Assembly: GCA_046483985.1 (NCBI GenBank)
Contig: JAWOCD010000075.1
Coordinates: 32,001-96,000, forward strand
Direction of reading: 5' to 3'
Origin: Promethearchaeia archaeon
GTDB taxonomy: Archaea; Asgardarchaeota; Lokiarchaeia; Sigyniarchaeales; SOKP01
DNA: 64,000 nt
Each line of letters starts with the position of its first letter. The stretch's first letter is position 1. Under the pieces are notes generated by a model, which saw only the letters and a list, made by a program, of their open reading frames with translations, was not told the DNA's origin and ran no database searches. Positions 798-18,225 of this stretch are shown one piece after another. Made by a program: the position numbers and the translations under genes.

Positions 798-3700
798 ATG
801 TCACGAATCGGTGAATCATTTAAAAATTTCCGCGATAGAATAAAAGCGGCTGTGAATGTAAAGGCGCGAAATATTCTATTCTTTACCGCTTTATTTTTAA
901 TCGTAATTATTGCAATTTTAATACGGCTTAGTCCTATTTTACAAGGTCCGAAGTTAATTAAAGCTTTCGATCCATGGATCCAATATTATAATGCCGAATA
1001 TTTATCGGAACACTCTCTTTTTGAATATTTTCATTGGCATGATTATAAAAGCTGGTTTCCAAAGGGTATGGATCGTTCAAATCTGAGACCCGGTCTCACT
1101 TTTACAGTAGTGATTATTTATAAACTTCTAAACTTTTTTGGTCTCCCCATAAGTTTGTATAACGTGTGCTATTTTTTTCCAGCGTTTATGGGGGGGATGA
1201 CCGTTTTAGCTGCTTATTTCTTGGGAAAAGAGATTTTGGACAGGAAGATGGGTTTATTTGCCGCGTTTTTCTTGGCCTTTAATACGGGTCATATGCAGAG
1301 AACAATGGCTGGTTTCTTTGATAATGAGACAATCGGAGTTTTTGCAGTTCTAATGACTCTTGTTTTCTTCTTAAAGACGATCAAAACCGGAAGAACCTTT
1401 TACTCTCTAATTGGCGGAATCTTTTTGGGTTATCTTACATTAAGTTGGGGGGGATTAACCTTTGGTCTCTATATAATCCCTTTAGTATGCGGAGTCTTGG
1501 TTTTACTAAATAAATATGATGAGAATGTACTTACTGCCTATGCAGGAGTTGAGGGAGTGGGTTTACTAATTTACTCGTTGTTTACTCGCTTTAATGTCAA
1601 TGAATTATTTAGCAGTTTAAAAGTCGGAGGAGTTTTTGCATTCACAATCGTCTTAACGGTGTATCATCTGATTTACCAAAGACGACGAAAATATCCCAAT
1701 TTCTACAGAAATTTGCTAAATACTATAAAATATGCAATTATTCCGGGCTCAATAATAATTGCGGTAGTGGTATGGATAGATCCCGATTTAATTCCTCTTG
1801 CGGGAGGCAGATTGGATAGTATTTTAAGTCCTTTTATGAGAGATCAGATGCATATTGTCGCTTCAGTTGCCGAACATATGCCGAGTTCGTGGTCTAATTT
1901 CTATTATAATACACTAATACCCTTATTGGTGGCTCCCTTAGGCATATTTTTTTGCTTTAAGAGGTTGAATGCTTCGGATATCACACTAATGGCGTTTTTT
2001 CTAACTTTATTCTATTTTACGAGCAGCATGGTTAGAATTGTTTTATTATTTGCTCCTGCGGTCGCTTTAGTTGCCGCGTACGGATTGGTAAACATTTTGA
2101 AAATCTTCGGAAGTTTTTTAAAAGAAAAGAGCCATGGAATCAGTAGGAAGAGAAAACGACAATTAAAACAAACTGTTGGCAAATCTGAAGTATATGGGGT
2201 CTACATTTTGATTGGATTCTTATGTATTGCGCAAGTTTCCCATGCCACCGAGATATCAATAAACCAGCTTTCTCATTCGCAAATCGTGGCTGGAGGACAA
2301 TTTCACGACTGGGAGGATTCGCTGACGTGGATGAAGAGTAATTTAGCGGGAACGGATGTGGTAGCAAGTTGGTGGGACTACGGATATTGGCTGACTCCCA
2401 TCGGGAACGTCACAACAATAAATGATAATGGAACTTGGAACTCAACTCAAATCGGGCTAACGGGTATGTCGTTAATGCAGACAAATGAGATTAATAGTGC
2501 AAAAATATTAAAAAGATTACAAGCAGAGTATGTTCTAGTCTATTTTGGGTTTCTTATTAATGGCTTAGGAGGAGATGAAGGCAAATGGCCCTGGATGTTG
2601 CGTATTTGTAATGATCACTACAATAAATATAAAGAATGGGGACTAGAAGAGGACAACTGGAAAGAAGATCAAGTGTTCGACGAAAGTGAATATATTAACA
2701 ATACAAGCGGGCAATACGAAGATAAGTGGTTTGAATCTCAGTTAGTGAAACTAATGTTTTATGGGGAACCAACAAATGTGCAATCAATTACTGATCCCAA
2801 TGCGAATTACTTGAAATATCATTACGCTTCGCAAATTGGTGGCGATCAACAACGAGGTGTCGAACCGCGGAAGGATGATAATGGAAATACTTGGGAATCT
2901 CATATCCCTGAGAATGGAGAGTATGATTTAAAAGTATTTCAACCCACCTATTTCTCGTCAAATGGAATGGTCAAGATCTACAAAGTTGACTATACTGCCT
3001 TGGATTCGAGCTTTAGCATAGAGGAACCACAAGTCTACAATGATGGTCATGGTACTTTAAGATTAGAAAACACGGGTAAAAAAGATTTAGAAATTAAAGA
3101 AGTGGAAATTAATCAAGAACCCTATAATTTTAGCCTAAGTCAACCCGGTGATTCGACAACTCTTGAGCAAGATGGAAAAGAAATAGTCTGGATAGAACCC
3201 TCAGAGACAACAAGCTTTAATAAAGATGATACGGTCAATGTAACCGTTACAGCTGAAGCTGATGCACTCGGCGAAGAAACTTACACTTTCGATACTTCGA
3301 CGAGTAATCTATTTGTAAAGGAATCAGAACCAAGCGACCTTCGGATTAATAGAAATAACAGCAATGTGGTGCAAAATATGGACCAAAACAACGATCCAAC
3401 CGATTCTGAGATATATCTAGAGGTCGAAAATACAGGCGATTCCATAACTAACTTGGATGAATTTTACTCCGTAGATTTAGGAGAAAGTTTTACTGATGTC
3501 ACTTATTTACAAGGATCCTCAATTCTTGCACCAGGAGAGAAGGCATACGTGAAAATAACAAAATCTCCACCTTTTTATCCATTGGGAATTTCTAACCATA
3601 TAGTAGGAGTCGAAGCATTTACCGGAGAAAAAGACGAAACATATTTCTCAGGAAATATGGAAGATTACAAATTGTCAATCTTAAGTGAAGAAAGAATCAC

Positions 3701-4730
3701 CTCGCCAGAGGCAAAAATATTTGGAGATTCGGCAACAAGAGACCACATACCGGTTGATCTCAATGGAACGGTAGGCTATATAGACGATAATGGGACTATT
3801 GATATGAACATTCATACTCAAAATACTGGGGATTTACCTTTTGGTCTTCATTCAGTAAATCTAACAGAGCAATCTACAGATACACAATATGGTACCCTTG
3901 AGCCCGATGAGTACCTAGAGGTGGGCGATAATAAAACAACTCAATTGCAAACATCTGAATTCGACTTGGCGGTAAATGACGAGATCTTTACTTCAATTAC
4001 CGGTAATTTCGAAGGAGAGACTAAAGCTTCCGATATTGGAAAGATACATTTAATTAAAAGAGCTCCCGATCTGACGATGCTCGAAGATGTAAATGATGAT
4101 CTCTCTTCATATATCTTAGCTGATGAAAGCGGAGAGTTATTGATTAAAAATACTGGAAATGAAACCATTACCTTGGATAATATTTCAATTACGGTAAATG
4201 ACACAACCCAAGAATTGTCAATAGAAGATGACATTTCATTTGAGTACGGGGATAAAGAATTGGGCATTCAAGAGTGTGCAATTACCTCATTTGATGACCT
4301 TGATTTGAATATCAATGAATCTACCCCGGTAGATATTAACATCACCACCACAGAATCTCTCTCTAAGGAATATACACTGAATGCCACTGTTAATCTTCCC
4401 GATACGTATAATTATGGGATTGAGATCAATAAGGAAAGCAGTGCTCAAGCTGATGATGATTTAAACCTTCTGGTTGATAATATATTTAAAAATGTAACGG
4501 TTGACTCTGTCTATGTGAATGATACCTACATTCCTTTGAACAACTTTACGAAGGATGGAGACTCTTTTGAAATTGAATCGGACGGACAAATTGAATTGGG
4601 TATGAAAATGAGCGAACTTGAAACGTTCTTAGATGTTTCTCAAATCGAAAATGGGGATAAGTTGGACATTTTGGTAAGAACCAAAGAAGGCGCTGAAGAT
4701 CAAAAAGATATAGATGTAACTAGTAGCTGA
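798..4730 (+). CDS. aglB: Oligosaccharyltransferase AglB/STT3 with a long acidic C-terminal extension
   Basis: AFDPW, GFFDNE, SVAEH, WWDYG, DNGT and DEGKWPWM motifs; multi-pass TM N-terminal half. Confidence 0.95.
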   Translation: MSRIGESFKNFRDRIKAAVNVKARNILFFTALFLIVIIAILIRLSPILQGPKLIKAFDPWIQYYNAEYLSEHSLFEYFHWHDYKSWFPKGMDRSNLRPGLTFTVVIIYKLLNFFGLPISLYNVCYFFPAFMGGMTVLAAYFLGKEILDRKMGLFAAFFLAFNTGHMQRTMAGFFDNETIGVFAVLMTLVFFLKTIKTGRTFYSLIGGIFLGYLTLSWGGLTFGLYIIPLVCGVLVLLNKYDENVLTAYAGVEGVGLLIYSLFTRFNVNELFSSLKVGGVFAFTIVLTVYHLIYQRRRKYPNFYRNLLNTIKYAIIPGSIIIAVVVWIDPDLIPLAGGRLDSILSPFMRDQMHIVASVAEHMPSSWSNFYYNTLIPLLVAPLGIFFCFKRLNASDITLMAFFLTLFYFTSSMVRIVLLFAPAVALVAAYGLVNILKIFGSFLKEKSHGISRKRKRQLKQTVGKSEVYGVYILIGFLCIAQVSHATEISINQLSHSQIVAGGQFHDWEDSLTWMKSNLAGTDVVASWWDYGYWLTPIGNVTTINDNGTWNSTQIGLTGMSLMQTNEINSAKILKRLQAEYVLVYFGFLINGLGGDEGKWPWMLRICNDHYNKYKEWGLEEDNWKEDQVFDESEYINNTSGQYEDKWFESQLVKLMFYGEPTNVQSITDPNANYLKYHYASQIGGDQQRGVEPRKDDNGNTWESHIPENGEYDLKVFQPTYFSSNGMVKIYKVDYTALDSSFSIEEPQVYNDGHGTLRLENTGKKDLEIKEVEINQEPYNFSLSQPGDSTTLEQDGKEIVWIEPSETTSFNKDDTVNVTVTAEADALGEETYTFDTSTSNLFVKESEPSDLRINRNNSNVVQNMDQNNDPTDSEIYLEVENTGDSITNLDEFYSVDLGESFTDVTYLQGSSILAPGEKAYVKITKSPPFYPLGISNHIVGVEAFTGEKDETYFSGNMEDYKLSILSEERITSPEAKIFGDSATRDHIPVDLNGTVGYIDDNGTIDMNIHTQNTGDLPFGLHSVNLTEQSTDTQYGTLEPDEYLEVGDNKTTQLQTSEFDLAVNDEIFTSITGNFEGETKASDIGKIHLIKRAPDLTMLEDVNDDLSSYILADESGELLIKNTGNETITLDNISITVNDTTQELSIEDDISFEYGDKELGIQECAITSFDDLDLNINESTPVDINITTTESLSKEYTLNATVNLPDTYNYGIEINKESSAQADDDLNLLVDNIFKNVTVDSVYVNDTYIPLNNFTKDGDSFEIESDGQIELGMKMSELETFLDVSQIENGDKLDILVRTKEGAEDQKDIDVTSS

Positions 4731-15762: not shown

Positions 15763-15945
15763 TCTTCTTTATTGAGATTTGGAAAACCCCTGATAAACAT
15801 AATAGAATATATTTTTCTTCTTAAGATTCTAATATAATGGGGATTTCTCGCCTATATTCGTAAAATTTTTATGATTTCCTATATTTTGATATATACTAAA
15901 GTATATTTTATATTCATGGAAAACACATTAAAGTGAAAATTTCAA

Positions 15946-18225
15946 ATGGTTAAGGTAAAAAATCCACAAGAAATCGCCGAAATGGTTACTGCTGGGTCAT
16001 ATAAGAAAAAACGTCTGTTTTCGATCGTTGCGCATATTGATTGCTGAATGAATGTCTCATTTAGCCAATAACATGGCAAAACGACGGCAACGGACTATTT
16101 AATGCGAAGAGCAGGGCTTATGCGTCCCGAAGATGCGGGAGAGCTCCAAATGACAGACTCAGATGAAGAAGAACAAGCAAGAGGGATTACGATCTTTACT
16201 TCCGTGGTGTTACTTGCGTTTAATGATCCACGGGAAGAAGAAGGGGTAGAACCTTATATTTTCCAAATAAACGATACACCGGGTCACATCTCATTTACTG
16301 GGGAAGTTTCCAGAGCACTTAGAAGCAGTGATGGAGCGTTGATCTTAGTTGACGCTCTTGAAGGAGTGATGACCCAAACAGAGACGAATATTAATCTTGC
16401 TGTTGGAGAGGAATTATGTAAACCTGTTTTATTTATTAATAAAGTTGATAGGTTAATCTCTGAAATCAAACTTTCACCTCAAGAAACATATGATAAAATT
16501 GATGAAATAACAAAACAAGTTAATGAATTGATTAGAAAAGTCAGACCTGAATGGTCAGATTGGGGAGTCGAATTTGCAGAAAATTCCGTTGCCATCGGTT
16601 CTGCAAAAGATGGATGGGGCTTCACTTATGAAATCCTAAAAGAGAACGATTATACACCTGTGAAAGTTTTTGAAAAATATGAGGAAGGAGATATCCAATG
16701 GTTAAGAGAAAATCTCCCGTTGGATGAACCGATGTTGAGAATGGTAGTTGATCATTTACCAGATCCAGTTACAGCCTCGAAATACAGGATACCTGAAATT
16801 TGGCAAGGGGATTTAGATTCTGAACTAGGGCAAGCATTACAGAAAAGTGATCCAAACGGGCCATTATATGGGATTATTTCCAAAATTTTCTTAGATCCTG
16901 CACAAAATTACCGAGCAACCTTAATAGGAAGGATATTTTCGGGTACAATGGACGAATCGGACACTTTATATCTGCTGAACAGTCGAAAGAAAAGTAGAAT
17001 AAAACGGTTAGGCGTAATGGAAATAACAGATATTTTAAATATCAAAGAAATACCAGCAGGGAATATTTTTGCAATGTATGGTCCGATGTGTCCATCCGGG
17101 GAAACTTTTGTGGATAACGTTGGGCTTGCTAAGGACAAAGATAATATTGATGAGATTCCTTCCTTTGAAAATATTAATTATGCGTGCAAAGCAGTAGTTT
17201 CTCGAAGCATTAAACCCAAAAATCCGCATGATATCGCAAAGTTAGGACAAGTGGTAAAGAAATGGTTAATGGCGGATCCAACCGCAGAGTTTACGATGGA
17301 CAAGGATTCTAAGGAGTTTATCCTTTCTGGAATTGATCCTCTGCAGATTGATATCCTTACCAAACGAATTAACAACCAAGTGGAGATCAATATCGGAGAG
17401 CCTATTATTGTATACAGAGAACGAATTACAAACAAAAGTGCCACGTTTCATACTAAATCTTCAAACGGTCATAACAGAATTCAACTGTATATTGAACCCT
17501 TAGATGAAAAGACTCTTGACCTTCTGGAGTCGGGAAAAATTACCGACTTAATGAACGAAGATGAAAGAGCCGAATTATTGAGAGACGTTGGATGGGACAA
17601 AAAAGAAGCAAAGAGAGTGGTAGATGTCTACAAGGGTAATCTCTTAGTAAACGCCACGAAGGGGTTACAAAGATTTGACCGAGTGAAAAGCTACTTATCT
17701 GGCGCTTTCCGTGATTGGTGTGAAAATTGTATTTTAGCGAAAGAACCTGCTTTAGGACTGCGTTTAGTATTTACGGATTTAACCATTCACGAGGACCCGG
17801 CACACACCGGGTATAATCAAATAGCAAGCATGAGTTATGCTGCTTTTTCCCTTGCAATGATGGATGCAGATCCACATCTTTATGAACCTATCCAGAAAAT
17901 TGATATTAAAACTCCCTCTGGCACAGATCCTGGTGTATTAGCCGTCATAAATAAGCATCGTGGAAGAGTTAATAATGTTGTACCCGATGGAGAATATGTC
18001 CGAATCAGCGGACAATTACCCGCCTCGGAAACCGTTGGTATTGCCGATGAAATTCGAGGATCTACTCAAGGACGTGCCTTTTTTGGATATGAATTTCTCG
18101 GATTTGAACGCGTTCCAGCCTCAATAGAGCCAGACTTGATCCTAGAAATTCGCAAGCGAAAAGGTCTTAAAGTCGAGCTTCCTGATGTTTCCTCATGGCA
18201 CCGATTTCTCTATAGAAAAACATAA
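15946..18225 (+). CDS. Elongation factor 2 family GTPase (possibly the Asgard EF-2 paralog); spliced CDS join(15946..16041,16072..18225), 749 aa
   Basis: The ORF-track protein (16102..) has RGITI, DTPGH, NKVD, SAK and EF-2 domains IV/V but no G1 box. The same frame upstream reads MVKVKNPQEIAEMVTAGSYKKKRLFSIVAHID, then 30 nt with two stops, then HGKTTATDYL. Confidence 0.92.
16042..16071 (+). other. Predicted bulge-helix-bulge (tRNA-type) mRNA intron, 30 nt
   Basis: Outer helix CAU/AUG (extended by UUGC/GCAA), central 4-bp helix AUUG/CAAU, 3-nt bulges AU^U and AA^C, inner 9-bp stem GCUGAAUGA/UCAUUUAGC. Cutting after the 2nd nt of each bulge rejoins GAU|CAU (Asp-His). Confidence 0.88.

Follow-up and report, generated by a model that had tools for sequence, protein, structure and literature searches.

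The 64,000-nt stretch of DNA analysed here, referred to as the window, was taken from contig JAWOCD010000075.1 (positions 32,001 to 96,000, forward strand) of the Promethearchaeia archaeon assembly GCA_046483985.1. At 15946-18225 on the plus strand it carries a gene for archaeal elongation factor 2 (aEF-2) whose reading frame is broken by a 30-nt insert within the GTP-binding P-loop. In all likelihood, this insert is a genuine bulge-helix-bulge (BHB) intron in the only bona fide aEF-2 gene of the organism, gained sporadically, tolerated, and obligatorily removed by splicing that is most likely constitutive housekeeping rather than an evolved switch.

In the proposed mechanism, the last bases of exon 1 would pair in the pre-mRNA with the 3' end of the intron, forming a 4-bp helix between two 3-nt bulges, and a 9-bp hairpin inside the intron together with an exon-exon helix would close the BHB motif. 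The splicing endonuclease EndA would cut within both bulges and the ligase RtcB would join the exons, which, judging from sequence and not from RNA, would restore GAT/CAT and the P-loop AHIDHGKTT (a slash within a motif marks the point of insertion or cleavage). The insert would belong to a family of micro-introns of about 30 nt that appears to have entered this gene at no fewer than five sites in relatives, as well as other protein-coding genes of the same genome.

An insert with in-frame stop codons splits the P-loop

In the list of open reading frames (ORFs) for the window, the plus-strand ORF that begins with the aEF-2 start codon spans 15946-16047 and encodes a peptide of 33 residues (MVK...FSIVAHIDC), closed by TGA at 16045-16047. 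This TGA is the second codon of the insert, which occupies 16042-16071 and has TAA (16069-16071) as its last codon, both stops being in frame. The frame of exon 1 resumes at 16072 with 717 open codons starting HGKTTATDYLMRRAG and ends with a stop codon at 18223-18225. Excision of exactly 16042-16071 joins GAT/CAT and gives ...FSIVAHID/HGKTTATDYLMRRAG, with the P-loop as it is found in intact orthologues; the insert thus sits exactly between the D and the H of AHID/HGKTT, the G1 motif of the protein.

The first ATG 3' of the insert, at 16102, opens a 707-codon ORF that begins MRRAGLM and lies past the P-loop. A first-pass annotation of the sequence had stated that the insert is a multiple of three with a stop at its second codon, that unspliced mRNA gives a 33-residue peptide, that a restart at 16102 would be without the P-loop, and that an active GTPase needs the removal of the 30 nt. 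These statements were borne out by our reading of the unspliced frame and by the position of the downstream ATG. Because the unspliced frame yields no active GTPase, removal of the intron would be obligatory for the production of EF-2.

The junction set by homology coincides with a BHB motif

EndA cuts a BHB motif after the second nucleotide of each bulge. When the sequence around the insert was examined for this geometry, the features of an EndA-type intron were found together: two 3-nt bulges on opposite strands, a 4-bp helix between them, the flanking helices h and h', a restored product, and genes for EndA and a ligase in the same genome (Table 1). The predicted BHB structure has a folding energy of -19.7 kcal/mol, within 0.6 kcal/mol of the minimum free energy (MFE) fold at -20.3 kcal/mol. 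The MFE fold contains both the inner and the outer helices, its one difference from the BHB structure being the register of the central helix.

The chance rate of such motifs was estimated over the genome, in which 18 of 8.1 million positions (2.2e-6 per position) form a 30-nt BHB with four Watson-Crick pairs in the central helix and nine consecutive inner pairs. A mirror-image control gave the same count (18) for this definition. When at least three outer pairs were also demanded, three positions were left in the genome versus none in the control. Since protein homology fixes the junction to a single position, its coincidence with a strict BHB is very unlikely to have arisen by chance.

The insert is present in contigs from two sequencing runs

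Logan contigs provided a check on the assembly. Contig X1, from a freshwater-sediment run that may be the source sample of the metagenome-assembled genome (MAG) itself, spans 15945-16340 without a gap and shows a single difference. Contigs X4, from a second run of the same study, represent a strain about 12% diverged and likewise cross the insert without a gap. The X4 differences listed fall at third codon positions of both exon frames (16005, 16008, 16014, 16032, 16080, 16083, 16116 and 16146) and at the first positions 16003, 16015 (CTG to TTG, synonymous) and 16141; none of the differences listed lies inside the intron. The gap-free contigs X1 and X4 indicate that the insert is not an assembly error, and the exact insert is known from this genome and from contigs of these two runs of one study. 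When metagenomes were searched for the two P-loop flanks separated by 0-30 nt, the 20 matches returned were all gapless and all generic, of the kind that any translational GTPase would give.

RNA contigs covering 16104-16363 and 17623-17922 were found in two salt-lake metatranscriptome runs and are 100% identical to the window. The organism or a very close strain therefore seems to be present, and possibly to be transcribing EF-2, in a second habitat (salt lake versus freshwater sediment), with DNA carry-over being possible.

The interrupted gene is likely the only translocase gene

The genome, a draft assembled from metagenome data, consists of 128 contigs and is 97% complete, with 4.8% contamination. 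Its nearest records are Promethearchaeota/Promethearchaeia MAGs, which makes the host an Asgard archaeon of the Loki type. The window gene aligned with the aEF-2 model TIGR00490 over model positions 30-720 with 588 bits, below the curated cut-off of 738. This cut-off was reached by neither EF-2 copy of this genome and by no genome among 41 relatives, and a score below it fits the accelerated evolution described for lineages without dph genes (Narrowe 2018). The 717 codons downstream of the insert are 71-79% identical to orthologues in other genera.

Most Asgard archaea have no dph genes and carry two EF-2 copies (Narrowe 2018, PMC6143161). The bona fide aEF-2 keeps the motifs HxDxxHRG, with the target His, and SPNKHN, K584 not being conserved, and the paralogue aEF-2p has lost both (PMC6143161). 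The domain-IV loops of the window gene read IHEDPAHTG, in which HxDxxHxG is kept, and SSNGHNR. The sole other EF-2-family gene of the genome, at 34191-36365 of contig C59, has YSIDEETL at the aligned loop, the diphthamide loop being absent, and so is an aEF-2p by the published criteria (Narrowe 2018, PMC6143161). Dph2 (PF01866) was not found in the genome, and we take the organism to lack diphthamide synthesis. We had first assumed that the window gene was the aEF-2p paralogue, an assignment that was reversed by comparison of domain IV with these criteria (PMC6143161). Because the window gene keeps the domain-IV loops and the C59 copy does not, we take the window gene to be the sole bona fide aEF-2 and likely the only translocase of the organism. 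For a gene with this role, inactivation becomes very unlikely and removal of the insert would be a condition of life.

Similar inserts occupy other sites of the same gene

About 70 orthologues are without an insert at AHID/HG, and nearly every copy in the 41 relatives and in 39 further records reads ...FSI[VT]AHIDHGKTT... at this point. The pattern AHID-N(20-60)-HGKT was matched in only two of 161 genomes of the class, the genome of the window and G153 (L129). The insert of G153 is 31 nt long, is unrelated in sequence to that of the window, and has a central helix of only 3 bp. With an insert at this junction in only 2 of 161 genomes, the putative AHID/HG intron is, as judged by its distribution, young or sporadic.

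Our widest survey of inserts covered the first 143 residues of exon 2, or about 175 codons of the gene. One or more stop-bearing inserts of 30-31 nt were found in 23 of the 161 class genomes, at five sites (Table 1). Although the gene has about 750 codons, the sites are all confined to codons 28-63, clustering towards its 5' end and in the G1 region. At the four sites other than AHID/HG, the junction set by homology again fell within a BHB (by hand or by script), with the same layout of 1 nt, a 23-nt hairpin, 4 nt and 2 nt, totalling 30 nt. The outer helix at these four sites is often only 1-3 bp. Asgard EndA has an L1 loop that has been linked to a broad substrate range (Hirata 2018, PMC5829648), and the short outer helix, which corresponds to the relaxed HBh' form, fits an L1-loop enzyme of broad specificity.

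The inserts at TDSD/DE were numerous enough to be compared as an alignment. The 19 sequences align without gaps, and across the central and inner helices 96.8% of the cells are paired. Compensatory changes occur at two of the pairs, one going from G-C to A-U in four sequences and the other from U-A to A-U, again in four sequences. Covariation scored higher than in any of the 500 shuffles, and sliding of the pairing partners cut the pairing to 27-49%. The loop of the intron varies freely, no intron sequence is conserved apart from that needed for the helices, and the host gene is 85-87% identical at the protein level. Such a pattern in the alignment is the signature of a putative RNA structure kept by selection.

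Two of the genomes have two candidate micro-introns in one aEF-2 gene, at AHID/HG and TDSD/DE in G153/L129 and at AH/ID and TDSD/DE in G070/L131. In addition, the TDSD/DE and TD/SD introns (L037, L039, L035), located 6 nt apart, share AUAG..AAG ... CUU.AUCUACUG, and both follow ..CAGAU. The shared sequence suggests that an intron may have slid or may have been re-inserted at a similar target.

Table 1. Coordinates of the aEF-2 gene, of the predicted BHB elements around its insert, and of the candidate micro-intron sites in aEF-2 genes of the class
Feature	Position or genome	Strand	Description
Exon 1 of aEF-2	15946..16041	+	32 codons, MVKVKNPQEIAEMVTAGSYKKKRLFSIVAHID; ends in the first half of the P-loop; matches orthologue N-termini
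Outer helix h, 5' strand (exon 1)	16021..16035	+	13 pairs, in three blocks, with 16073-16087 (exon 2)
Central 4-bp helix, exon strand ATTG	16036..16039	+	pairs with intron CAAT 16066-16069, four Watson-Crick pairs
5' three-nt bulge AU/U	16040..16042	+	predicted EndA cut 16041/16042, equal to the homology-set junction
Predicted BHB micro-intron, 30 nt	16042..16071	+	1 bulge nt + 9-nt stem + 5-nt loop + 9-nt stem + 4 exon-pairing nt + 2 bulge nt
Inner hairpin h', 9 bp	16043..16065	+	16043-51 with 16057-65, one G-U; 5-nt loop 16052-56; in the MFE fold
3' three-nt bulge AA/C	16070..16072	+	predicted EndA cut 16071/16072; would restore GAT/CAT = D/H
Exon 2 of aEF-2	16072..18225	+	717 codons + stop; begins HGKTT; GTP_EFTU, domain 2, EFG_III, EFG_IV, EFG_C (profile search)
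Candidate micro-intron site AH/ID	L075; G070/L131		30 nt, in-frame stop
Candidate micro-intron site AHID/HG	window; G153/L129		30 nt (window); 31 nt (G153/L129)
Candidate micro-intron site HG/KTT	G003/L034		30 nt, in-frame stop
Candidate micro-intron site TD/SD	G012, G024		30 nt, in-frame stop
Candidate micro-intron site TDSD/DE	G004 + 18 more genomes, genera g11, g2, g5		30 nt, in-frame stop

Other genes of the genome carry similar inserts

The first-pass annotation had suggested that other apparently truncated genes of this lineage may hide similar micro-introns, and the survey of aEF-2 sites in relatives upheld this, as did further genes of the genome itself. The gene for AMP phosphorylase has a 30-nt insert in the phosphate-binding motif DKHST/GGVPG (C32:149428-149457, minus strand in plus-strand coordinates; L135), with CAGC/GCUG as its central helix, a hairpin of 10 bp and no outer helix. 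Its product matches TIGR03327 over positions 1-500 with 569 bits, above the cut-off, with one TAG inside the match. In a WecC-like NDP-sugar dehydrogenase gene (C45:48366-48395, plus strand), a 30-nt insert with a 10-bp hairpin lies in the GxGxxG loop GMGY/VGIPMAA, and the match to TIGR03026 (positions 2-413) runs across a TAG and a TAA. By eye only, we also noted a frame-shifting insert of 31 nt in an iorB-like gene (C4, minus strand, about 3680-3710 in reverse-complement coordinates) at ILGSE/MHGLAQREG, having an AGCG/CGCU central helix and a hairpin with one bulged A.

A scan that combined the codon-usage log-odds of both flanks, a frame break and hairpin energy gave six matches at an insert length of 30 in the real genome versus none in the mirror image. 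Three of the six were convincing, namely EF-2, the WecC-like dehydrogenase and AMP phosphorylase. The scan is informative at this length only; when the length is not divisible by three, noise hides the signal. The cbf5 gene of this genome is uninterrupted, and at an HDAC site our quick BHB scorer ranked no 31-nt solution.

The genome encodes EndA and RtcB

Profile searches of the genome identified one EndA of 200 residues, encoded on contig C32 and having N-terminal and catalytic domains, and two RtcB genes, on contigs C37 and C66, as the first-pass annotation had required for splicing. With aragorn, only 22 tRNA genes were found in this nearly complete genome, few of them with introns at the canonical position; non-canonical introns probably conceal many others. 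Asgard tRNA genes are described as heavily, and often non-canonically, interrupted (2026 preprint, bioRxiv 10.64898/2026.10.13.758758). Taken with this preprint, the count of 22 implies a busy splicing system.

Weighing of the proposed intron against other explanations

Several results weigh against a spliced BHB intron at this position. Structure-only scans of the whole genome for BHB motifs, coupled to a test for ORF restoration, gave equal counts for the real and the mirror-image sequence (e.g. 449 versus 450). The RNA contigs on the gene stop short of the 16041/16072 junction, no alignable homologue of the AHID/HG intron was found in the 161 class genomes, and a search with PF01974 for a second (beta) EndA subunit returned nothing credible even at E<=10. 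The equal counts mean that the BHB motif by itself does not discriminate in this AT-rich genome, and the case for the intron rests on the coincidence of the motif with the homology-set junction. The first-pass annotation had proposed a scan for BHB motifs whose excision restores a conserved hidden Markov model (HMM) alignment; in AMP phosphorylase and the WecC-like dehydrogenase, the BHB inserts do lie within full-length HMM matches.

The first-pass annotation had also proposed that splicing might act as an on/off switch with the logic of HAC1/XBP1. In such a scheme, the ratio of spliced to unspliced mRNA would tune EF-2 synthesis, through EndA and RtcB, to RNA-processing capacity or to stress. 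No active GTPase can be made from the unspliced mRNA, and with a sole bona fide EF-2 gene a drop in splicing would limit translation; moreover, expression of Haloferax HVO_1309 is affected by removal of a BHB intron in its 5' untranslated region (UTR) (PMC7714728). Dependence on EndA and RtcB is, however, a logical consequence of the intron and not evidence of regulation. An intron serving as a HAC1/XBP1-like device would be conserved at its site across the lineage, but the two inserts at AHID/HG among 161 genomes are unrelated in sequence, the many uninterrupted orthologues do without one, and there is no conserved intron sequence beyond the needs of the helices. That similar introns interrupt metabolic genes, and the aEF-2 gene itself at four further sites, looks like sporadic insertion. 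We consider the switch unsupported and a regulated role unlikely; the distribution of the inserts is a better fit to sporadic, tolerated introns than to a conserved regulatory device.

It is very unlikely that the insert simply disables the gene and marks a young pseudogene. Two in-frame stops within the P-loop codons would suit such a gene, as would the restriction of the exact insert to this genome and two runs of one study, one of them possibly the source sample. Yet the 717 codons beyond the insert are open and well conserved between genera, no other gene of a 97%-complete genome has the translocase loops, and the insert persists in the diverged X4 strain with flanking changes that are mostly synonymous. 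A strict BHB lies at the exact junction, and the sister inserts have been kept across genera with compensatory changes. Programmed bypass of coding gaps, as in T4 gene 60 and the mitochondrial byp elements, is marked in gene 60 by a short insert that is a multiple of three, with a stop just after the take-off region and a hairpin. The aEF-2 insert recalls these features, and ribosomes might hop the 30 nt or, by another form of recoding, read through the stops. We regard this as quite improbable, because the matched take-off and landing codons are absent: GAT precedes the insert and no GAY stands at its 3' end, and the same holds at the other sites. Read-through would place 10 residues inside the P-loop, and the related 31-nt inserts (G153 and iorB), not being multiples of three, cannot be handled by in-frame read-through. 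The BHB fits each of the sites in exact register. The chance that the insert is an artefact of assembly or sequencing is close to negligible. The genome is admittedly a fragmented draft with some contamination, but contigs of two runs carry the insert gap-free, one of them from a diverged strain, and many MAGs of unrelated studies have equivalent inserts.

Relation to known introns

Archaeal tRNA introns reportedly carry either strict hBHBh' or relaxed HBh' motifs, a distinction said to have been drawn by Marck and Grosjean in 2003, and a BHB intron in the cbf5 pre-mRNA of Crenarchaeota is said to have been described by Watanabe in 2002 and Yoshinari in 2006. The proposed EF-2 intron resembles the tRNA introns in its 4-bp helix, its two 3-nt bulges, the cut after the second bulge nucleotide and the predicted use of EndA and RtcB. 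Unlike in the tRNA introns, the host RNA is an mRNA, and the exon side of the BHB is made up of codons that specify a conserved protein motif, not of a tRNA stem.

BHB introns within coding sequence were found in the literature, our coverage of which is incomplete, only for crenarchaeal cbf5 (PMC2738675), which was also named as the only earlier mRNA example when a 5'-UTR case was described in Haloferax (PMC7714728). No paper on BHB introns in Asgard protein genes was found, which with the same incomplete coverage is not proof of absence. The cbf5 and EF-2 cases share a BHB-type intron in coding sequence with patchy gain and loss among relatives (Yokobori 2009, PMC2738675). The cbf5 intron is removed by the splicing endonuclease and is associated with a hetero-oligomeric EndA of broad specificity, to which we liken the EF-2 case. 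The two differ in lineage and gene, cbf5 being interrupted in Crenarchaeota and aEF-2 in the Asgard Promethearchaeota, and in the number of insertions, since the EF-2 inserts occupy at least five sites in one gene, are nearly fixed at 30-31 nt, and have counterparts elsewhere in the genome, in several further genes. For cbf5, splicing has been demonstrated by experiment, whereas that of EF-2 is inferred only. In the present case, the same machinery appears to be needed before an Asgard archaeon can make its sole functional EF-2.

HVO_1309 of Haloferax volcanii provides another mRNA substrate of the splicing endonuclease, and there removal of the intron affects expression (Schwarz 2020, PMC7714728). 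That intron, however, is in an untranslated leader and in a euryarchaeon with an alpha'2 enzyme, whereas the EF-2 intron is in the reading frame. With HAC1/XBP1, the EF-2 case would share a non-spliceosomal mode of splicing, endonuclease cuts in stem-loops, RtcB-type ligation (in metazoa) and a protein output that depends on splicing. HAC1/XBP1 splicing relies on a stress-activated endonuclease, Ire1, and on an intron that has been conserved for its regulatory role. Neither is the case for EF-2, and the analogy is one of logic only.

If removal of the insert is true at the RNA level, interrupted protein genes and obligatory mRNA splicing would be features of the archaea most closely related to eukaryotes. 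The fixed insert size, many sites and patchy distribution would offer a tractable system for the study of intron gain and loss, and essential genes of Asgard archaea would systematically be cut short or split by automatic genome annotation. A broader proposal, to which we give about an even chance, is that BHB micro-introns of about 30 nt are proliferating across the protein genes of Promethearchaeota, metabolic genes and at least five aEF-2 sites included, that mRNA splicing is routine and obligatory there, and that synthesis of the translocase is tied to tRNA-splicing capacity. Were micro-introns proliferating in this way, the link between EF-2 and tRNA-splicing capacity could be exploited for regulation. 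The currently unsupported switch would, if true, be a new layer of translational control.

Upstream of the gene, we noted by eye only a TATA-box-like element, TTTTATATT, at 15906-15914, about 36 nt from the ATG at 15946. Its position suggests that the EF-2 mRNA may have a very short leader.

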